Shown: positions 7,510 to 24,997, counted from the first letter of the stretch. The stretch is DNA of 64,000 nucleotides from an uncultured Mollicutes bacterium (GCA_900543055.1 UQQI01000001.1:14350-78349); one strand, 5' to 3'. Numbers and translations are program-made. The notes: generated by a model from the letters alone, not told the origin.

Positions 7510-8640
7510 ATGATATATTTAGATTATGCATCCGCAACTCCTGTGGATAAAGAAGTATTAGATGTTTATAATGAAACTAGCAATAAATATTATGCTAATC
7601 CGAATTCAATACATCCTTTAGGAATAAAGTCAAAAGAAAAATTAGATACTACAACGAAAGAAATTGCACACTTGTTAAATGTCGAAAAAGAAGAAATAAT
7701 TTATACAAGTGGAGCAACTGAGTCAAATAATTTAGTAATAAAAGGAATTGCTAATAGATATAAAAACTATGGTAAACATTTACTATTAAGTTCATTAGAG
7801 CATCAATCATTAATAGCTCCTGCAACAAAGCTTCAAGAACAAGGTTTTGAAGTAGAATTAATACCTGTAGATTCAAAAGGTAGAGTTGATTTAGAAGAAT
7901 TAAAATATCTACTAAGAGATGATACAATTCTTGTAAGTGTTACATCAGTGGACTCTGAACTCGGAATTATTCAACCAATAAATGAGATTGGAGCACTATT
8001 AAAAGAATATAAGCACTGTATATTTCACACAGATGCTTCTCAAGCTATTGGTAAGATTGATTTAAATTTAGAAAATGTTGATTTAGTAACAATAGCACCA
8101 CATAAATTTTATGGACTTAACGGAACTGGATTATTGATAAAGAAAAAAGGTATTGAACTATCTCCAATAATAGATGGGGGAAGATCAACTACAGTATATA
8201 GAAGTGGAACACCTGTACTTCCTGAAATAACAGCACTTTGTAAAGCACTACAAATTGCATTGAATAATCAAAAGGAAAGAATAGAATATGTGGAAAGATT
8301 AAATAATGTAATAATAGAAAAATTAAAAAGTTATAAAAATATTCATATAAATTCAAATGAGTATTCAATAAAAAACATTATAAATATTAGTATAAGTGGA
8401 ATAAAATCAACAGAATTTGTGGATTACATGGGAAAAAATAACATATGTATTTCAGCAAAAACATCATGTTGTCCAGTAGAGACACCATCAAAATTAGTTT
8501 ACGCCTTAACAAAAAGTAAAGAATTATCAACAACGTCACTTAGAATAAGTCTTTCACATTTAACCACGAAAGAAGAAATAGATGAATTTATAAAAATATT
8601 TGATAAAGGATATAGGGAGTTTTTAAATGGAAAAATATAA
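7510..8640 (+). CDS. Cysteine desulfurase (class V aminotransferase, NifS/IscS-like)
   Basis: RBS AAAAAGGAG precedes ATG 7510 (MIYLDYASATP…). PLP-lysine motif TIAPHKFYGLNGTG. C-terminal SAKTSCC active-site-like cysteine. The ORF track start at 7345 is probably too far upstream. Confidence 0.7.
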   Translation: MIYLDYASATPVDKEVLDVYNETSNKYYANPNSIHPLGIKSKEKLDTTTKEIAHLLNVEKEEIIYTSGATESNNLVIKGIANRYKNYGKHLLLSSLEHQSLIAPATKLQEQGFEVELIPVDSKGRVDLEELKYLLRDDTILVSVTSVDSELGIIQPINEIGALLKEYKHCIFHTDASQAIGKIDLNLENVDLVTIAPHKFYGLNGTGLLIKKKGIELSPIIDGGRSTTVYRSGTPVLPEITALCKALQIALNNQKERIEYVERLNNVIIEKLKSYKNIHINSNEYSIKNIINISISGIKSTEFVDYMGKNNICISAKTSCCPVETPSKLVYALTKSKELSTTSLRISLSHLTTKEEIDEFIKIFDKGYREFLNGKI

Positions 8641-9457
8641 AGAAATTGAAAGAAGTATAATAAAAACATATAGAAAAGATATTTGGTCAAGGTTTATAAA
8701 GGCAGTAATTGATTATCAACTAATAAATGAAGGAGACAACATCATGGTATGTATTAGTGGAGGAAAGGACTCATTTTTACTTGCTAAATGTATACAAGAG
8801 TTACAACGCCATGGTAAATACAAGTTTAATGCTCACTACGTAGTAATGGACCCAGGATATAATGAATACAATCGTTCTTTTATTGAAGATAACGCAAAAA
8901 TATTAAATGTACCAGTAGAATTTTTTGAAAGTGACATTTTTGACGTTGTTGAAAAAATGGATTCAAAAAGTGCTTGCTACATGTGTGCTAGAATGAGAAG
9001 AGGATTCCTATACAAGAAAGCACAAGAATTAGGATGTAATAAAATAGCTCTCGGTCATCAATTTGATGATGTAATCGAAACAACACTTCTATCAATGTTT
9101 TATGCATCAGAAATAAAAACAATGCTTCCAAAACTTCATTCTGATAATTTTGAAGGAATTGAATTAATAAGACCACTATATTTAGTAAAAGAGCAATCTA
9201 TAATTACTTGGAAAAAACATAATGAATTAACATTTATAAATTGTGCATGTAGATTTACAGAAGGATGTTCATTAATAAATGATGGAACAAGTAAAAGAAA
9301 AGAAGTAAAAGAATTAATAAAAAGACTAAAAAGAACTTCTCCAAATATAGATGAACATATATTTAAAGCACTTGATAATATAAGTATGGATTGTATCTTA
9401 GGATGGAGAAATGGAAAAGACCATCATTCATTCTTAGAGAAATATGATAAAAAATAA
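8627..9457 (+). CDS. ttcA: PP-loop ATPase of the TtcA/TtuA tRNA thiolation family
   Basis: PP-loop CISGGKDS. CxxC (SACYMCARMRR) and a second Cys pair (NCACRF). Pairing with the adjacent cysteine desulfurase fits tRNA sulfur transfer. Confidence 0.65.
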   Translation: MEKYKEIERSIIKTYRKDIWSRFIKAVIDYQLINEGDNIMVCISGGKDSFLLAKCIQELQRHGKYKFNAHYVVMDPGYNEYNRSFIEDNAKILNVPVEFFESDIFDVVEKMDSKSACYMCARMRRGFLYKKAQELGCNKIALGHQFDDVIETTLLSMFYASEIKTMLPKLHSDNFEGIELIRPLYLVKEQSIITWKKHNELTFINCACRFTEGCSLINDGTSKRKEVKELIKRLKRTSPNIDEHIFKALDNISMDCILGWRNGKDHHSFLEKYDKK

Positions 9458-16668: not shown

Positions 16669-17124
16669 ATGAATAATAAATTAGAAAGATTTATAGAAGC
16701 ACAAGAAAAATCTTATGAAGAAGCTTTAAAAGAAATTAAAAATGGCAGAAAAGAAACTCATTGGATGTGGTATATTTTCCCACAAATTACTGGTTTAGGT
16801 ATGACTTATATATCAAATTATTATTCAATAAAAAGTATTGAAGAAGCAGAAGAATATTTAAAAAACATACAACTAAGAACAAACTTAGAAGAAATAACAA
16901 AGGAACTTTTAAAATTAAAAACAAATGATTCAGAACAGTTATTAGGACCAATTGACTCATTAAAATTAAAATCTTCAATGACTCTATTCGACTATATTGA
17001 ACCAGATACAATATACAATTTAGTTTTACAAAAATACTATAGTGGAGAAAAAGACAATAAAACATTAGAAATACTAAGTAAAATGTCAAAAGAAAAAGTA
17101 AATATATTAAGGAGAAATCAATGA
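16669..17124 (+). CDS. DUF1810 family protein
   Basis: HWMWYIFPQ motif characteristic of DUF1810. 151 aa. Confidence 0.55.
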   Translation: MNNKLERFIEAQEKSYEEALKEIKNGRKETHWMWYIFPQITGLGMTYISNYYSIKSIEEAEEYLKNIQLRTNLEEITKELLKLKTNDSEQLLGPIDSLKLKSSMTLFDYIEPDTIYNLVLQKYYSGEKDNKTLEILSKMSKEKVNILRRNQ

Positions 17125-17760
17125 ACCTGCTAGAACTAATAAATAAAACAAAAAATATAATATCTGATGATTCTTATAAAAAATATGCTAAATACTATGA
17201 TTTAACTGAACCAACTGATAACGCATTTAATGATAAGATAGATATAATTTATGATTTAATTATAAATAAAAAATATGACGATATAGAAATTATCGCAAAA
17301 GAAAGTAACTGTACCTTAGAAGAATGTGTAATGAAAATTCGCTATTTAAAAAATAAAAGACTAATTGGTGACTATTATATCGATATAAACTAAAAGAAAA
17401 TAAGACAATGTTCAGAAAGTGATGAGAAACTTTTAGAAGAATATTCAAAATTTTTATATTATCAACATTTACAAATAGACGAAATAGCATTAAGATATCC
17501 AACAACAACATTTAATAACCTTGAACAGATAAAAGAAAAAATATATAATGACATAGCGTATCTTTATAACAAAGGTCTATTAAATGGAATAAAGTTAAAT
17601 AATGTTGATAAATCAATATCATATTATACTATTGATAAAAGAAAAAACAGTTTAGAATTAAAGACTATTAATTGTCCAAATTGTGGAGCAATTAATGAAC
17701 TTAATAAGTATAGTAAAGTAAAATGTGAGTATTGTGGAACAATAATTGAAGATAACAAAT
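17121..17760 (+). pseudogene. ORF interrupted by a single in-frame TAA (17391-17393). The 90-aa N-part and the 122-codon start-less C-part end in a CxxC…CxxC zinc ribbon
   Basis: The same reading frame continues protein-like after the TAA (KKIRQCSESDEKLLEEY…INCPNCGAINELNKYSKVKCEYCGTIIEDNK) with no ATG/GTG/TTG start before the next stop at 17758-17760. Confidence 0.45.
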
Positions 17761-17839
17761 AATTAATAAACAATAATTATATATATTTTTTATTTATTTT
17801 CTAATAATATGTAAAGAATAAATATGTAAGGAGGTAGTT

Positions 17840-19792
17840 ATGTTTAAATTAGTATCTAAGTATAAGCCAAGCGGAGATCAACCACAAGCAATAGATAAAT
17901 TAGTAAAAGGTATAGAAGAAGGTAAACATGAACAAGTGCTGCTTGGAGCAACAGGAACCGGAAAAACATTTACAATAGCAAATGTAATAGCAAGAACTAA
18001 TAGGCCTACCCTTGTTTTAGCACATAATAAAACTCTTGCAGGACAATTATATAGTGAATTAAAAGAATTGTTCCCTGAAAATAGAGTAGAGTATTTTGTT
18101 TCATATTATGACTACTATCAACCAGAAGCATATGTTCCATCAACTGATACATATATTGAAAAAGACTCATCAATAAATGACGAAATAGATGAATTGCGTC
18201 ATGCTGCAACATCAGCTCTTATTAGTAGAAGAGATGTAATTGTAGTATCATCTGTATCTTGTATATATGGTATTGGAGAAGTTGAAGAATATAAAAATAA
18301 AATGTTAACATTAACAGTTGGTGAAGATATCTCTCGTGAACAAGTATTAACTAAATTAGTAGATATGCTTTATGAAAGAAATGATTTTGATTTCAAACGT
18401 GGCACATTTAGAGTTAGAGGAGATACATTAGAAATAATTCCAGCCAATCAAAATACTCTTGGATTTAGAATTGAGTTTTTTGATGAAGAAATAGATAGAA
18501 TTTGTGAAATAGATACATTAACTGGAACAATTACAAAAAATATGAAAAACGTAAGTATTTTCCCAGCAAGTCATTTCGTTGTAAGTGATGAAAAACTACA
18601 AGCAGCAATTGTTAGAATAAAAAAAGAATTACAAGATCGATTAGAAGAATTAAAAAATAATAACAAATTATTAGCAGCAGAGAGATTAGAGCAAAGAACT
18701 AATTATGATTTAGAAATGTTAGAAGAAACAGGCTTTTGTTCTGGAATAGAAAATTATTCTGCACCAATGGCTGGACGAACTCCAGGAGAAACGCCAACTA
18801 CATTAATGGATTTCTTCCCAGATGACTATCTTTTAGTGGTTGATGAATCACATGTAACACTACCTCAAGTTAGAGGTATGTATAATGGAGATAGAGCAAG
18901 AAAAATGAATTTGGTTGACTATGGCTTTAGATTACCTAGTGCACTAGATAACAGACCTTTAAAATATGAAGAATTTGAAAAGAAAATAAATCAAGCTATA
19001 TATGTGTCTGCAACACCTGGTGATTTAGAATTAGAACATACCAATAATCAATATGTAGAACAAATAATAAGGCCAACAGGTTTATTAGACCCAACAATTG
19101 AAGTTAGAAAAACAGAAGGACAAATAGATGACTTAGTTGGAGAAATTAATGAAAGAATAAATAAAGATGAACGTATTCTTATAACAACATTAACCATAAG
19201 AATGGCTGAAGAGTTAACTAACTATTTAAAAGAACTTGATATTAAAGTTGCATATTTACATAGTGAAGTAAAAACGTTAGAAAGAATGCAAATAATTCAC
19301 GATGTAAGAGCAGGCAAATATAATGTATTAGTTGGAATAAATCTTTTAAGAGAAGGACTAGATATCCCAGAAGTATCTCTAATTGCAATACTAGATGCTG
19401 ATAAGGAAGGATTCTTAAGAAGTAATAGAAGTCTTATTCAAACAATAGGAAGATGTGCAAGAAATGCCAATGGTCATGTTATAATGTATGGTGATAAAAT
19501 AACTGATTCTATGCAACAAGCAATAGATGAAACAGCAAGAAGAAGAAAAATTCAAGAAGAATATAACAAGGAACACGGAATAATTCCACAGACAATAAAG
19601 AAAGAGATAAGAGAAGTAATCTCAAATACAGATACTAAAGAAAGTAAAGGTAAGAAAAAACTTACTAAGAAGGAAATTGCTAGAAATATCGAAAATGTAG
19701 AAGAAGAAATGCGTGAAGCAGCAAGAAATCTAGATTTTGAAAGGGCAATGGAACTTAGAGATATCTTATTTGAAATGAAATCAAATTTATGA
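17840..19792 (+). CDS. uvrB: Excinuclease ABC subunit B
   Basis: RBS AAGGAGG. Helicase motifs GATGTGKT and DESH. C-terminal UvrB/UvrC interaction domain. 650 aa. Confidence 0.95.
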
Positions 19793-20622
19793 AAAAGTTT
19801 AGAAAAATATATATAGAAATAACTAATGTATGTAATTTAAAGTGCTCATTTTGTAGTGAGGTAACAAAAAAAAGAAGATTTATGACAAAAGATGAATTTG
19901 AACTTATTCTTAAAAAAATAAATAAGTACACGGATTATATTTATTTGCATGTAAAAGGAGAACCACTACTTCATAAAGATATCATAGAGTTTATTAATAT
20001 GGCATCAAAATATAATATAAAAGTAAATCTAACAACTAATGGAACATTATTTCCAAATATTGCTGAGCAATTAGGTAAATTAAGTGCTCTACATAAAATA
20101 AATTTTTCTCTTCATTCAGAAAATAATTTAGAAAATTATCTAGAAAATATCTTTGAAAATATTAAGTATTTAAAAAAAGATACAATTGTAATTTATAGAT
20201 TATGGACTCTAAATAATAATAAATTATATAATAAGTCACAAAAAATAGTGGAAAAAATAAAAAAATATTATAATTTACCACAAGAAACTGTTGAAAAAAT
20301 AGAAAATGAAAGCAATATAAAGATAAATTCCACAATATATGTTGATAAAGATAATGAGTTTTCATGGCCTAAAGAATCAAATTATCAAAGTAATGGCTAT
20401 TGTTATGCATTAAAAACTCAAATAGCAATATTATGTGATGGAACAGTAGTACCATGTTGTCTAGACTCAAATGGCAAAGTTCCATTAGGAAATATCTACA
20501 CAGAAGATTTAGAAGAAATAATAAATAGTGAAAAATACCAAAAATTAAAAAAATCTTTTCAAGATAGAAAGCCATGTGAAGATTTATGTAAATCATGTAC
20601 ATTTAAAGAAAAGTTCAACTAA
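19789..20622 (+). CDS. Radical SAM protein with a C-terminal SPASM/twitch-like Cys cluster (277 aa), function unknown
   Basis: CNLKCSFC (CxxxCxxC) at residues 15-22. C-terminal [11 protein letters not shown]…C…CKSC. ATG overlaps the uvrB stop (ATGA), implying translational coupling. Confidence 0.7.
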
Positions 20623-20663
20623 AAACATACCAAAATTATTTTGATATGTTTTTATAAAAAAGC

Positions 20664-22082
20664 TTATTTAAAGAACACAGTATTATAATCAATAAATCTA
20701 TTCTTACTATACTCATAATCGATTTTTTTATCTTTTAAATTATAAGCTTCAAGTAGTTTATTTTTTAATAATTCTTCATTACCTTCGTTAAAATATTCAA
20801 GCGGAATAACAATACCATTTTCCTTATCAACAACATTCAATTCATGAATTGCTGGAATATCTGTAGTAATAATCTTAGTTTTAGAACATAATGCTTCAGT
20901 TAAAGAATAAGAAAGAGCTTCCGTTCTACTAAATTGAACTAAATAATCACTATCAGATATATAATCAATTACATTAGTAACACAATTTCTAAATATAAGA
21001 CCACCTTGGTTTGCTTCAACAATATCAGTAAATACACTCCATGTATATGGAATTTTTTCTTTATCTAAAATGCTTGCTGCTTTCTTGATTCTATCCATTC
21101 CTTTTTCTGGAGCATTTCTAATTGCAGAAATTAGTCTCATATGAGGTTTAATTTTTTTCTTATCATAAGTAAATGGATTGTATATATATTCAATATTATT
21201 TGTTGGAAAATAACCATAAGCAGTATCTCTAGCAATTTTAGAAACTGCAATATACCTATCATATATATCATCAACAAACCTAGCAGATGCCTCGTAGTCA
21301 GCCATATTGCCATGAATAAAAATACAAGACTCTTTTAAAGTATAAATATTAATAGGGTAAAAATAAGTTGAATATGTAGTTACCAAACTATCACAAATAT
21401 AGTCAATATCTTCATCTAGTTTTACACAACTAAAATATTCTTCAAATCTCTTCTTAGTAACTTCATTAATTTCTGTATATATAATTGTTATTGGATACTC
21501 AGAAAAAGCCTTTCCAATTTCGTTTAACCAAGTTACATAACCGTTAAACATTCCATTACAAAAAGCACCAACATAAACAATATTTTTATAGTAAACACTT
21601 TGTCTTCTATTTACCATATTTAAGATATTATAAAATTCCCCATCTTTATTATGAAAATATAAAACATTAGAAATATTAGTACGATTTACAAAAATATCAT
21701 TAAATCCAGTAAAATTATTTCTTATTAATTCAATTAATTTATTCTTATTAAAAACAAAATTCCATATATATGAATTTTTCTTTGGAACTTTACTATTTAA
21801 ATCATATTCATCAGTCCTAACTTTAAGTTCACGAACGTAATCATAATTAATTCTATAATTTATAAAACAAGAATCAAATTCATTAAATTTAATTTTATCT
21901 AAAATTCTACTGAAATAATCATCTGAAATATTATCTTCGCTATCAACAAAAGATATATAACTACCACGTGCATTAAAGATATCTTCCAATTTATTAAATC
22001 GTATTATTTCGACTTCATCACGGATATCTTTAATAAATAAATCTTCATTACCTAAAATAAAAGTTGTTAAAATCTTATTCAA
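20664..22082 (-). CDS. Glycosyltransferase (472 aa): GT-B/GT4-like C-terminal domain with an EX7E motif and an N-terminal GT-A-like fragment
   Basis: C-terminal FSRTEALSYSLTEAL (E-x7-E, as in GT4). N-terminal FVDSEDNISDDYF resembles the GT2 DxD region. Convergent with the radical SAM gene. Confidence 0.55.
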   Translation of the reverse strand: MNKILTTFILGNEDLFIKDIRDEVEIIRFNKLEDIFNARGSYISFVDSEDNISDDYFSRILDKIKFNEFDSCFINYRINYDYVRELKVRTDEYDLNSKVPKKNSYIWNFVFNKNKLIELIRNNFTGFNDIFVNRTNISNVLYFHNKDGEFYNILNMVNRRQSVYYKNIVYVGAFCNGMFNGYVTWLNEIGKAFSEYPITIIYTEINEVTKKRFEEYFSCVKLDEDIDYICDSLVTTYSTYFYPINIYTLKESCIFIHGNMADYEASARFVDDIYDRYIAVSKIARDTAYGYFPTNNIEYIYNPFTYDKKKIKPHMRLISAIRNAPEKGMDRIKKAASILDKEKIPYTWSVFTDIVEANQGGLIFRNCVTNVIDYISDSDYLVQFSRTEALSYSLTEALCSKTKIITTDIPAIHELNVVDKENGIVIPLEYFNEGNEELLKNKLLEAYNLKDKKIDYEYSKNRFIDYNTVFFK

Positions 22083-22157
22083 ATTACCACATCCTAATAA
22101 TAATATAGCATATTTTTATTTAAAAAGTTTATTTACATTAATAAAAATAAGATTTTG

Positions 22158-22166
22158 TGGTATAAT
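22158..22166 (+). promoter_or_regulatory. Extended -10 (TGgTATAAT) of the uvrA promoter
   Basis: TGGTATAAT lies 18 nt upstream of ATG 22184. No GAAC-N4-GTTC LexA box is visible. Confidence 0.4.
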
Positions 22167-22183: not shown

Positions 22184-24997
22184 ATGGATAAAATTATAGT
22201 AAAAGGTGCCAGAGAAAATAATTTAAAAAATGTAAATATAGAACTTCCTAAAAATAAAATGATAGTTATGACAGGTTTATCAGGAAGTGGAAAAAGTTCA
22301 CTTGCTTTTGACACGATTTATGCAGAAGGTCAAAGAAGATATGTAGAAAGTCTATCTGCTTATGCAAGACAATTTTTAGGTGGTTCTGAAAAGCCAGATG
22401 TTGATTCGATTGAAGGATTATCTCCAGCTATTAGTATTGATCAAAAAACAACATCTAATAACCCACGTTCTACTGTAGGAACAGTAACAGAGATATATGA
22501 TTATCTAAGACTATTATTCGCAAGAGTTGGTACACCATATTGTCCAAATCATAATATTCCAATATCTTCACAAAGCGTAGAAGAAATGACAAATAAAATT
22601 ATGGAATATCCACTTGGAACAAAAATGGTTATATTATCTCCTGTAGTACATGGAGAAAAAGGTACTCATAAAGATTTGTTTGACAAATTAAGAAAAGAAG
22701 GTTATGTAAGAGTACGTGTAAATGGAGAAATATATGATTTAGGTGAAGAAATTACTCTTGAAAAAAATATTAAGGATAAAATTGATGTTGTAATTGATAG
22801 AATAGTATTAAAAGAAGAATCAAGGAGTCGTTTATTCGAAGCAATTGAACAAGCGACAAAATTATCAAGCGGAAAAGTAGTAATTCAAATATTAGGTGAA
22901 AATAAAAAGGAAATAGTTTTTTCCGAACAATTTGCATGTCCTCATTGTGAATTTAGTCTACCTGAGTTAGAACCAAGACTATTTAGTTTTAATGCTCCAT
23001 ATGGTGCTTGTCCAGATTGCAAAGGATTAGGAATAAAATTACAAATTGACCCAGACTTAGTAATACCTGATAAGAGTTTATCAATTAATGAAGGATGCAT
23101 CAAAACACTTAGTGATGATCAAGAAAATATGGACTACAAAAAACTAGAGTGTGTTTGTAAACACTATAAAATTGATATGGATAAACCATTCAATAAACTA
23201 ACTAAAAAACAAAAAGAAATGATTTTATATGGATCAGATGAAATAATACATTTTAACTATCAGACAAAAAGTGGAAATATTATGAATTCAAAAAACATCT
23301 ATGAAGGAATTATAAATAATCTTCAAAGAAGATATATGGAAACAAGTTCAACTTGGATTAGAGAATGGCTTGAAAATTACATGATTGAATATGAATGTGA
23401 TACATGTAAAGGTGCAAGATTAAATGATGATGTATTACAAGTAAAAGTTGGAAATAAAAATATTCATGAAGTAACTTGTATGAGTATAAAAGAGTTAATT
23501 ATATTCTTTAAGAATTTAAAATTATCAAAAGAAAAAACTGAGATAGCAAGATTGATATTAAAAGAAATAGAAGACAGATTAAATTTTTTACAAAATGTTG
23601 GCCTTGAATATTTAACTTTAAGTAGAAGTGCTGGAACATTATCAGGAGGAGAAGCACAAAGAATCAGATTAGCTACTCAAATAGGTTCACACTTAACAGG
23701 TGTATTATATGTATTAGATGAACCTAGTATTGGACTACATCAAAGAGACAATGAAAAACTGATAAATTCGATGCTTGAGATGAGAGATTTAGGAAATACA
23801 CTAATTGTTGTAGAACATGATGAAGATACAATGCGAGCATGCGATTATTTGGTCGATATTGGACCAGGAGCTGGAGATAAAGGTGGAACAGTAGTTGCCT
23901 GTGGAACACCAGAAGAAGTAATGAAAAACGAAAAAAGCATTACTGGACAATATTTAAGTGGTAAAAAAAGAATAGAAGTCCCAGAAAAGAGAAGAAAAGG
24001 AAATGGTAAATTTATAAAAATAAAAGGTGCCGAAGAACACAACTTAAAAAATATAGACGTAGATATTCCTTTAGGAACATTCACTTGTATTACGGGAGTA
24101 TCTGGAAGTGGAAAATCCTCTCTAATTAATGAAATACTTGTAAAAAAAGTTTCTCAAGAGTTATATCATAGTAAAGAAAAGCCAGGAAAACATAAGAAGA
24201 TATTAGGAATAGATAACTTGGACAAAATAGTTGCTATTTCTCAAAATCCAATAGGAAGAACACCTAGATCAAATCCAGCTACATATACTGGAGTATTTGA
24301 TGATATAAGAACATTATTCACAACAACAAAAGAAGCAAAAATGTATGGTTTTGAAAAAAATCGTTTTTCATTTAATGTAAAAGGTGGAAGATGTGAGGCT
24401 TGTCGTGGAGATGGTGTTAAAAAAATAGAAATGCACTTTTTACCAGATGTATATGTTCCTTGTGAAGTTTGTCATGGAACACGTTATAATCAAGAAACAT
24501 TAAACATAAAATATAAGGGAAAGAATATTGCAGAAGTACTTGATATGAGAGTTTCTGAAGCATTAAAATTTTTTGAAAATGTACCAAAAATAAGTCATAA
24601 ATTACAAGTTTTAGAAGACGTTGGACTAGGATATATAAAATTAGGTCAAAGTGCTCCAACATTATCAGGAGGAGAAGCAGAACGTGTAAAATTAGCAAAA
24701 GAACTTCAAAGAAAAGCAACAGGAAAAACATTGTTTGTTTTAGATGAACCAACAACAGGATTACACACTGATGATATCAAGCGTCTTCTTGCAATTCTAC
24801 AAAAAATAGTAGATAATAAAGATACTGTGGTAGTAATTGAACACAACCTAGACGTTATAAAAGTGTCTGATTATATCATAGATTTAGGTCCTGAAGGTGG
24901 AGATGAAGGTGGTAATATTGTTGCTACTGGAACACCAGAGGAAATTGCAAAAGAAAAAGGCTCATACACAGGACAATTTCTAAAGAAAATGCTATAG
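22184..24997 (+). CDS. uvrA: Excinuclease ABC subunit A
   Basis: Two ABC modules (GLSGSGKSSLAF and GVSGSGKSSLIN, with LSGGE signatures), zinc-finger Cys pairs. 937 aa. Confidence 0.95.
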   Translation: MDKIIVKGARENNLKNVNIELPKNKMIVMTGLSGSGKSSLAFDTIYAEGQRRYVESLSAYARQFLGGSEKPDVDSIEGLSPAISIDQKTTSNNPRSTVGTVTEIYDYLRLLFARVGTPYCPNHNIPISSQSVEEMTNKIMEYPLGTKMVILSPVVHGEKGTHKDLFDKLRKEGYVRVRVNGEIYDLGEEITLEKNIKDKIDVVIDRIVLKEESRSRLFEAIEQATKLSSGKVVIQILGENKKEIVFSEQFACPHCEFSLPELEPRLFSFNAPYGACPDCKGLGIKLQIDPDLVIPDKSLSINEGCIKTLSDDQENMDYKKLECVCKHYKIDMDKPFNKLTKKQKEMILYGSDEIIHFNYQTKSGNIMNSKNIYEGIINNLQRRYMETSSTWIREWLENYMIEYECDTCKGARLNDDVLQVKVGNKNIHEVTCMSIKELIIFFKNLKLSKEKTEIARLILKEIEDRLNFLQNVGLEYLTLSRSAGTLSGGEAQRIRLATQIGSHLTGVLYVLDEPSIGLHQRDNEKLINSMLEMRDLGNTLIVVEHDEDTMRACDYLVDIGPGAGDKGGTVVACGTPEEVMKNEKSITGQYLSGKKRIEVPEKRRKGNGKFIKIKGAEEHNLKNIDVDIPLGTFTCITGVSGSGKSSLINEILVKKVSQELYHSKEKPGKHKKILGIDNLDKIVAISQNPIGRTPRSNPATYTGVFDDIRTLFTTTKEAKMYGFEKNRFSFNVKGGRCEACRGDGVKKIEMHFLPDVYVPCEVCHGTRYNQETLNIKYKGKNIAEVLDMRVSEALKFFENVPKISHKLQVLEDVGLGYIKLGQSAPTLSGGEAERVKLAKELQRKATGKTLFVLDEPTTGLHTDDIKRLLAILQKIVDNKDTVVVIEHNLDVIKVSDYIIDLGPEGGDEGGNIVATGTPEEIAKEKGSYTGQFLKKML

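Follow-up and report, generated by a model that had tools for sequence, protein, structure and literature searches.

We analyzed a 64,000-nt stretch of DNA from an uncultured Mollicutes bacterium (GCA_900543055.1, UQQI01000001.1:14350-78349; hereafter the window), in which the DNA-repair genes uvrB and uvrA are separated by a gene for a radical S-adenosylmethionine (SAM) protein, referred to below as rSAM, and by a gene for a glycosyltransferase (GT). The initial annotation had described a 277-amino-acid (aa) radical SAM protein that starts at an ATGA overlap with the uvrB stop codon and a convergent 472-aa GT, both inserted between uvrB and uvrA. This layout, in which the two genes break up an otherwise Bacillus-like uvrB-uvrA pair, was recovered in full, with the following genes and features:

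17840-19792, plus strand: uvrB (650 aa), which lies upstream in the transcription unit; NCBIfam equivalog NF003673, 1079.8 bits against a cutoff of 743.
19789-19792, plus strand: ATGA overlap of the rSAM start codon with the TGA stop codon of uvrB, read directly in the sequence.
19789-20622, plus strand: rSAM, an open reading frame (ORF) of 277 aa from an uncurated family, of the twitch type; Pfam PF04055 and PF13186 above cutoff.
20664-22082, minus strand: two-domain GT of 472 aa, a lineage-specific accessory gene; Pfam PF00534 and PF13692 above cutoff.
22184-24997, plus strand: uvrA (937 aa); NCBIfam equivalog NF001503, 1567.4 bits against a cutoff of 1147.

Both flanking products exceed their equivalog models across the full length and are thus assigned to UvrB and UvrA, the former with UvrB_inter, UvrB, and UVR domains (Pfam). 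The sequence at the uvrB-rSAM junction reads aatttATGAaaaag. The rSAM and GT genes, both located between uvrB and uvrA, converge with a separation of 41 bp, and the intergenic gaps in the interval measure 41 bp and 101 bp. The insert has a GC content of 0.21-0.27, compared to 0.26-0.32 for uvrB and uvrA, without a sharp compositional break. Direct adjacency of uvrB and uvrA, which had been taken as the normal arrangement, is typical of Bacillus-type Firmicutes with their uvrBA operon, but not of bacteria generally.

The rSAM protein matches the Pfam models Radical_SAM (PF04055, 63.3 bits, cutoff 29.5) and SPASM (PF13186, 63.4 bits, above cutoff). Two regions carry its conserved cysteines:

19831-19854, plus strand: CX3CX2C motif CNLKCSFC (C15, C19, C22), predicted to hold the SAM-binding 4Fe-4S cluster; invariant in 91/91 and 86/86 family sequences.
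20392-20601, plus strand: twitch domain (aa 202-271) with invariant C205, C223, C224, C267, and C270; aligns with BtrN residues 166-236.

The C-terminal cysteine cluster had initially been called SPASM- or twitch-like. The twitch part of this description, with five invariant cysteines, holds, while the seven-cysteine SPASM part does not. SPASM domains are defined by the motif CX9-15GX4C-gap-CX2CX5CX3C-gap-C (PMC6231123). The C-terminal region of the window protein does contain seven cysteines (C205, C216, C223, C224, C263, C267, and C270), of which five are conserved; position 216 is a cysteine in 22 and position 263 in 7 of 91 family sequences. The pattern runs C205-X12-G218-X4-C223 and is followed only by C267-X2-C270; the SPASM motif is thereby represented by its first half, while its CX2CX5CX3C half is absent. 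Since the Pfam SPASM model matches all the same, it cannot separate SPASM from twitch domains. The latter are truncated SPASM domains in which a β-hairpin followed by helix α2′ holds one auxiliary cluster, ligated by one cysteine before the hairpin, one after the hairpin, and two after α2′ (PMC6231123). In the AlphaFold model of rSAM (predicted local distance difference test, pLDDT, 95.4), strand and helix elements alternate across residues 6-189, C205 precedes the hairpin strands 211-214 and 219-221, C223/C224 follow the hairpin, and C267/C270 follow helix 248-258. This placement corresponds to the published twitch ligand topology and thus assigns the protein to the twitch class.

By sequence, the nearest solved structure is BtrN (E = 4.3e-12, covering core and C-terminal domain) among 13 PDB sequence matches at E <= 0.01. 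BtrN, whose auxiliary cluster has Cys4 ligation (PMC10337720), is also the nearest fold in the PDB (Foldseek E = 3.7e-13, TM 0.73 on BtrN length), followed by BlsE, SkfB, MoaA, SuiB, anSME, SpeY, DesII, AbmM, and viperin; the top fold matches are radical SAM enzymes without exception. Overall, sequence and structure model place rSAM among compact, BtrN-like radical SAM proteins of the twitch type, with one predicted auxiliary cluster, and not among full SPASM enzymes. It reached no NCBIfam cutoff. In total, 51 families were matched, all below cutoff among the 25 best shown, and the best match (75.5 bits against 380) covered the N-terminal core only. NrdG2 scored 35.6 bits against 131, MoaA 59-67 against 231-325, and BlsE 46 against 400; QueE was not among the 25 best. 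Members of the family from the nth, mutY, and ttcA clades described below likewise reach no NCBIfam cutoff. An assignment as anti-phage viperin-like pVip, obtained with PADLOC, was rejected as the match (44 bits) extends only over the generic N-terminal ~105 residues, at profile positions 2-105 of 257.

We searched 1.84 billion representative sequences exhaustively with HMMER and rSAM as query. With a threshold of E <= 0.001, this search returned 16939 representative clusters (at 50% identity), of which 420 had E <= 1e-30. A length of ~230-330 aa and an almost end-to-end match to the query characterise nearly all of the best 150 listed members; in their sources, members are named only "radical SAM protein" or "SPASM domain-containing protein", and distant ones carry a generic name or no name. 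In an alignment of 86 representatives, 34-57% identical to the window protein, the cysteines C15, C19, C22, C205, C223, C224, C267, and C270 are invariant. The wider set of 91 sequences, drawn from all context types, has 44 positions that are at least 93% conserved; apart from cysteines they include Y8, E10, N16, H54, H62, N84, S107, H109, R137, W139, W193, and D226. Conservation of this extent across contexts argues for one constant substrate and not for lineage-specific natural products. Judged from these sequences, the family (~280 aa) is large, conserved, and widespread in gut Firmicutes, and lacks a curated model. A full-text literature search found no characterised member.

Gene neighbourhoods were compared at six loci from reference genomes, at 80 from metagenomes, and on several contigs retrieved through protein identity (loci are given below as L numbers). 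The scan of reference genomes with the single rSAM sequence returned close relatives only, and the broad survey therefore consists of metagenome contigs. Apart from the window, 19 loci have uvrB as the gene directly upstream of rSAM, with identities down to 41% for rSAM and down to 72% for UvrB. At 16 of the 20 uvrB-linked junctions, the two genes overlap by 4 or 8 nt or are 1 nt apart; the remaining ones comprise one with an ambiguous start and three loci with an extra gene for a 219-239-aa protein between uvrB and rSAM. The pair also persists where uvrA is not downstream (L012, L062). These comparisons indicate that the uvrB-rSAM coupling is old, tight, and conserved. As to the inserted genes, those of L005 (3923-4582) and L016 (5274-5993) encode a 219-239-aa protein family with 31% mutual identity and no Pfam or PADLOC match, and the insert of L019 at the corresponding position is a different one of 225 aa.

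Elsewhere in the family, rSAM has other repair genes as neighbours. Nested within the uvrB clade is a subclade of nine loci with the order dnaD-nth-rSAM-asnB, in which nth is upstream and its product was confirmed as Nth by Pfam. In two deeply diverged sister sequences, L089 and L070, recG ends exactly at the rSAM start. In a separate, high-GC clade from metagenome-assembled genomes of Oscillospiraceae or Ruminococcaceae, mutY lies directly downstream of rSAM, in at least 13 Oscillospiraceae-type metagenome loci as well as in L105-L107; this MutY consists of HhH-GPD and NUDIX_4 domains. Usually the thymidine kinase gene tdk comes next and then a second radical SAM gene, rSAM2, with frames that overlap or nearly abut. 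The order rSAM-mutY-(tdk)-rSAM2 is kept across three different upstream flanks, namely yidC-jag, sufS-nifU, and dnaK-dnaJ-PHP-rpiB-DUF4015. The full-text search returned no report of uvrB, mutY, nth, or recG in linkage with a radical SAM gene, in agreement with the initial statement that the coupling to a repair gene has no known precedent.

The rSAM2 protein of the mutY block has 289-290 aa, an N-terminal CxxCPxxC motif, and a PflA/NrdG-activase-like core, and belongs to no curated NCBIfam family. Copies downstream of mutY-(tdk) are located as follows:

L040, 8518-9384: rSAM2.
L066, 8513-9382: rSAM2.
L105, 6927-7796: rSAM2.
L106, 7484-8353: rSAM2.

L107 (GenBank MT835673.1, "Bacteriophage sp.", UNVERIFIED; 22 kb, 63% GC) carries rSAM-mutY and is the sole match in the phage collection. 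Its MutY is 66% identical to that of L044. We rejected a phage origin, since the sequence is most likely a bacterial Oscillospiraceae-type contig that was misfiled as phage.

Based on gene context, we tentatively propose that rSAM is a two-cluster radical SAM oxidoreductase that is co-expressed with DNA-repair genes and acts on a substrate related to DNA damage or to nucleosides, a reading whose chances we put a little short of even. The substrate class is suggested by the operon-like position of the gene next to uvrB, recG, nth, or mutY(+tdk) in independent clades. In such an enzyme, the cluster bound by CX3CX2C would cleave SAM reductively to a 5'-deoxyadenosyl radical, in analogy with BtrN, and the radical would abstract a hydrogen atom from a small, evolutionarily constant substrate. 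The auxiliary 4Fe-4S cluster, presumably ligated by C205, C223 or C224, C267, and C270, might then accept the second electron, so that the net reaction would be an oxidation (dehydrogenation) or a related rearrangement. In this genome, translation of the protein would start on the uvrB message through termination-reinitiation at the ATGA, and its expression would thereby track nucleotide-excision repair. Candidate substrates might be a DNA lesion, a damaged nucleoside released by excision, or a nucleotide precursor that carries damage.

The partner genes lend this proposal some statistical support. Among ~13-14 tightly coupled same-strand partner types, three are repair genes (uvrB, recG, and mutY), or four with nth; a rough binomial estimate of our own, which assumes a background of 3% and ignores phylogeny, gives p ~0.008. 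Moreover, relocations within the low-GC clade landed beside other repair genes (nth, recG), and the mutY block stays intact while its flanks change. Both observations favour a functional link.

The most serious alternative is a housekeeping twitch radical SAM enzyme without any link to DNA repair, such as a sugar, cyclitol, or cofactor oxidoreductase or an RNA-modification enzyme, which came to lie in well-expressed operons by accident of insertion and was kept there by synteny. We regard this as quite possible, though somewhat less than an even chance. Several results weigh against a repair function, for such an enzyme, or both. The uvrB clade lies inside a conserved Firmicute block, ftsEX-M23 peptidase-uvrB-…-uvrA-lgt-yvcK-whiA, and inertia of this ancient syntenic block alone could preserve the pair. 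About half of the sampled loci, here called the other clades, have neither a DNA-repair neighbour nor a recurrent partner: their 149 flanking ORFs contain 176 Pfam families, none of which occurs in more than four. These clades are heterogeneous, no partner is universal, and L104 has a Gram-negative-looking context. Counted over all distinct placements, ~4 of ~44 are repair-linked, which is not significant against an expectation of 4-5%. In one lineage (L013-L015), the rSAM homologue starts within the gene of a TtcA-like PP-loop ATPase, which is a protein of the tRNA-thiolation type, and is tightly coupled to it. A LexA/Cheo box (GAACN4GTTC, one mismatch allowed) is absent upstream of uvrB and uvrA, and its window-wide count corresponds to chance. 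A basic isoelectric point as a sign of nucleic-acid binding was not found either, with near-neutral family group means of 6.9-8.8, and R137 is the sole near-invariant basic residue, which argues against a nucleoside triphosphate as substrate. Additionally, the fold neighbours BtrN, BlsE, SpeY, DesII, and AbmM are sugar or cyclitol dehydrogenases and nucleoside-sugar enzymes. What such a housekeeping enzyme leaves unexplained is the recurrence of three or four different repair genes as operon-like partners in separate clades, together with the relocations, the stable mutY block, and the partner-type estimate given above.

A PP-loop ATPase of the TtcA-like type is also encoded in the window itself (8627-9457, plus strand; SGGKDS and CxxC motifs), ~10 kb from the rSAM gene. 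It is 31% identical to the protein of L013-L015.

A stronger version of the repair proposal, which we consider improbable, would make the family the second radical SAM enzyme for DNA damage after spore photoproduct lyase, and thereby a new DNA-repair activity. At the same low level of confidence, anaerobic Firmicutes would use this two-cluster, oxygen-sensitive enzyme to reverse or process a lesion that nucleotide-excision and base-excision repair deal with. Equally speculative candidates for such a lesion include radical-derived products favoured by anoxia, such as 5',8-cyclopurines or 5,6-dihydropyrimidines, or their excised nucleosides. If correct, this version would explain the repeated placement with uvrB, nth, recG, and mutY-tdk.

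Nth and MutY are 4Fe-4S proteins, and sufS-nifU lies immediately upstream at one mutY-linked locus. An accessory factor for Fe-S DNA glycosylases, or for Fe-S handling, which does not itself act on DNA or nucleosides, would fit these two observations. We nevertheless consider it very unlikely. Neither UvrB nor RecG, with which rSAM is partnered in the clade of the window, contains an Fe-S cluster, and sufS-nifU is found in only one of the three flank types. Furthermore, maturation of simple 4Fe-4S proteins is not known to us for any radical SAM enzyme.

Even less probable is the maturase of a ribosomal peptide or of a protein cofactor that the initial annotation had favoured for a small SPASM enzyme. 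The Pfam SPASM match, weak partial matches to the tungsten-cofactor maturase, PqqE, SkfB, and sactisynthases, and the presence of SkfB, SuiB, and anSME among the fold neighbours point in this direction. However, all maturase models were missed by far (e.g. 75.5 bits against 380), the seven-cysteine motif is incomplete, and the twitch pattern can hold only one auxiliary cluster. The radical SAM core begins at about residue 8 of 277, which leaves no room for an N-terminal recognition element of the kind used for peptides that ribosomes synthesize and that are modified post-translationally (RiPP). The initial remark that no precursor-peptide ORF is visible was confirmed: every ORF of at least 20 aa in the uvrB-uvrA interval lies inside or antisense to a long gene, and none is free-standing. 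No recurrent peptide, protease, exporter, or other transporter cassette was present among the 149 flanking ORFs of the other lineages, nor were recurrent peptide, protease, or exporter genes found in any clade. A peptide maturase was therefore rejected.

The GT gene required a separate assessment. Its TTG start codon aligns with the N-termini of homologues, and its AlphaFold model has a pLDDT of 90.1. Residues ~160-472 adopt a GT-B/GT4 fold with TarM, BshA, PglA, GtfA, and SdgB as fold neighbours. Two features are of note:

20895-20921, minus strand: EX7E motif (E388..E396) of the GT4 domain; both glutamates invariant in 40 family members.
21618-22082, minus strand: N-terminal domain of ~155 aa, truncated and GT2 (GT-A)-like, with the DxD-like "DSED" kept; PF00535 profile positions 76-132 of 168.

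The GT-B fold, PF00534, and EX7E place the protein in GT4, and the earlier description as a GT-A-like N-terminal fragment joined to a GT4-like domain with EX7E is thus borne out. The partial GT2 match (PF00535) of the window copy stays below cutoff with 17.9 bits against 23.3, and exceeds it in the homologues P0316 and P0367 with 27.1 and 26.1 bits, respectively. By sequence, the N-terminal domain is probably a truncated, non-catalytic remnant. In the homologue P0285 (678 aa, 60% identity over the full 472 aa), an extra, complete GT2 domain is found at the C-terminus (residues 484-598), and this segment resembles the truncated N-terminal domain of the window protein with 36% identity.

The GT family is narrow, with 143 hits restricted to uncultured Bacilli, and the gene lies next to rSAM only in the window and its three nearest relatives, L001-L003. 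The corresponding slot holds an unrelated 357-aa plus-strand ORF without Pfam or PADLOC match in L004 (6849-7922), is empty in L005, and contains small ORFs in L006; in L012 and L030 it holds a 93-aa ORF and then a second gene (Band_7/NfeD in L012), and L016 likewise has no GT between rSAM and uvrA. Four unrelated loci harbour GT homologues with 41-54% identity, mostly with no other gene on the same strand and never with an rSAM neighbour, and in the window the GT is one of four minus-strand ORFs among 53 of at least 150 aa. These distributions indicate that the GT is an independent, mobile accessory gene and not a partner of rSAM, contrary to the coupling initially suggested. It may have dropped antisense into a variable slot, and the gap between rSAM and uvrA appears to behave as an insertion hotspot. 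PADLOC, applied to rSAM, the GT, and four variable-slot genes, returned only the generic pVip match of rSAM, and the slot is not recognisably a defence island.

The initial annotation had stated that its proposal would fall if the insertion were common in relatives without the GT and if rSAM belonged to a known housekeeping family. The former is indeed the case, whereas none of the known housekeeping families in NCBIfam contains the protein. That a sugar-modifying rSAM and the adjacent GT form a cell-surface glycan module inserted into uvrBA is hardly credible and largely refuted by the comparative data: it would account for the adjacency in the window and L001-L003 and for nearest solved enzymes that act on sugars or aminocyclitols, but the genes are convergent and therefore not co-transcribed, the rSAM gene stays where the GT is missing (L004-L006, L012, L016, L030, and all other clades), the GT relatives lack an rSAM neighbour, and the rSAM family is larger than that of the GT by orders of magnitude (16939 rSAM clusters at E <= 0.001 against 143 GT hits).

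Two of the GT homologues were found in other surroundings. In L100 (3444-7857), a homologue with 44% identity lies between two surface proteins with TED (thioester) domains, a context which hints that this GT family may glycosylate surface adhesins. In L098 (1644-2351), from another Bacilli lineage, a homologue is flanked by an M23 peptidase gene on one side and by a group of small genes (113, 360, and 223 aa) on the other, followed further on by an rve integrase gene and then by uvrB. This arrangement would fit a tendency of the uvrB region to acquire insertions.

Three further features of the interval concern transcription:

20620-20654, strand not assigned: AT-rich hairpin located between the stop codons of the two convergent genes and a candidate terminator for both directions; RNA folding energy -9.6 kcal/mol, z = -3.3 versus shuffles.
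22097-22124, minus strand: promoter-like site upstream of the GT gene, TTTAAA-16-TATTAT, 9/12 matches; a consensus match only, of a kind not enriched over shuffles.
22138-22166, plus strand: promoter-like site upstream of uvrA with an extended -10 (TGgTATAAT), TTAATA-17-TATAAT, 10/12 matches, with TG.

The hairpin was missed by a scan for G+C-rich terminators and may act as a terminator. The site at 22138-22166 points to transcription of uvrA separately from uvrB-rSAM. Together, hairpin and promoter-like site suggest that uvrB-rSAM, the GT gene, and uvrA are three separate transcription units here.

Some additional observations were made in the window. Its ORFs are strongly biased in orientation, with 49 of 53 of at least 150 aa on the plus strand, and Rfam and tRNA scans detected no tRNA, rRNA, riboswitch, or other Rfam family at threshold across the 64 kb. 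Proteins of L001 are 95-99% identical to those of the window across the region. Upstream of uvrB, orf90 (17121-17771, plus strand) stops at an in-frame TAA (17391-17393). Its L001 counterpart is a 216-aa ORF with ACA (Thr) at the position of the TAA and a C-terminal CPNCG…CxYCG zinc ribbon. Since readthrough of the stop in the same frame gives a product collinear with this intact ORF, the window copy may have become a pseudogene through a nonsense mutation, may be a split gene, or may reflect an assembly error. Four ORFs of 276 aa were considered as a repeated element, which was rejected as they are mutually unrelated.

Overall, the most interesting part of the locus is an uncharacterised twitch radical SAM family that is coupled to uvrB here and lies near nth, recG, and mutY-tdk elsewhere. 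Neither the family nor its linkage to uvrB has a published description that our full-text search could find. Radical SAM enzymes without assigned function are abundant in gut anaerobes, and this family is large, compact, and strongly conserved; its repeated operon-like contact with four different DNA-repair genes is a concrete lead that can be tested. A functional link would mean a new enzymatic activity in bacterial DNA repair or nucleotide sanitation under anoxia. If there is no link, the locus would still caution against deducing a shared function from translational coupling to, and deep synteny with, a repair gene. In either case, two tempting annotations are corrected: the label "SPASM maturase" is wrong because the domain is twitch-type and has no peptide partner, and the label of an rSAM-glycosyltransferase "module" is wrong because the GT is an independent, mobile accessory gene.

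Comparison with known systems places both proteins. The GT has the GT-B fold, EX7E, and the Pfam GT1-family matches in common with TarM, BshA, PglA, and GtfA/SdgB; it differs by its additional truncated GT2-like N-terminal domain, and its identity to any solved GT is only 11-17%. For rSAM, spore photoproduct lyase (SplB) is to our knowledge the only established radical SAM DNA-repair enzyme. It likewise occurs in Firmicutes and is a functional precedent only, without detectable relationship to rSAM: it is absent from the PDB sequence matches at E <= 0.01 and from the 50 best Foldseek PDB matches. Spore photoproduct lyase has neither a twitch domain nor an auxiliary cluster. SpeY, BlsE, DesII, AbmM, MoaA, and anSME share with rSAM the architecture of core and auxiliary cluster (Foldseek E 1e-11 to 1e-7), and sugars or nucleosides are the substrates of several among them; rSAM misses all of their curated family models by wide margins. 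Of these, anSME has two auxiliary clusters, unlike the pattern in rSAM, and MoaA has an open iron site and conserved Arg residues for GTP, neither of which is seen in the rSAM family.

The best match in both sequence and fold is BtrN, the 2-deoxy-scyllo-inosamine dehydrogenase of butirosin biosynthesis (PDB 4M7T/4M7S). Identity is ~18%, and the rSAM family has an extra invariant cysteine in its CC pair 223/224. Whereas BtrN belongs to a specialised antibiotic cluster, the rSAM family occupies housekeeping regions of gut Firmicutes, and no aminoglycoside genes were found in any examined neighbourhood (~100 loci). Membership in the BtrN (DOIA dehydrogenase) family was therefore rejected on the grounds of identity and context. 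Nevertheless, both are compact single polypeptides (~250-280 aa) with a partial TIM-barrel core and a twitch domain, and the four C-terminal cysteines of BtrN align with the invariant C205, C223, C267, and C270 of the rSAM family.

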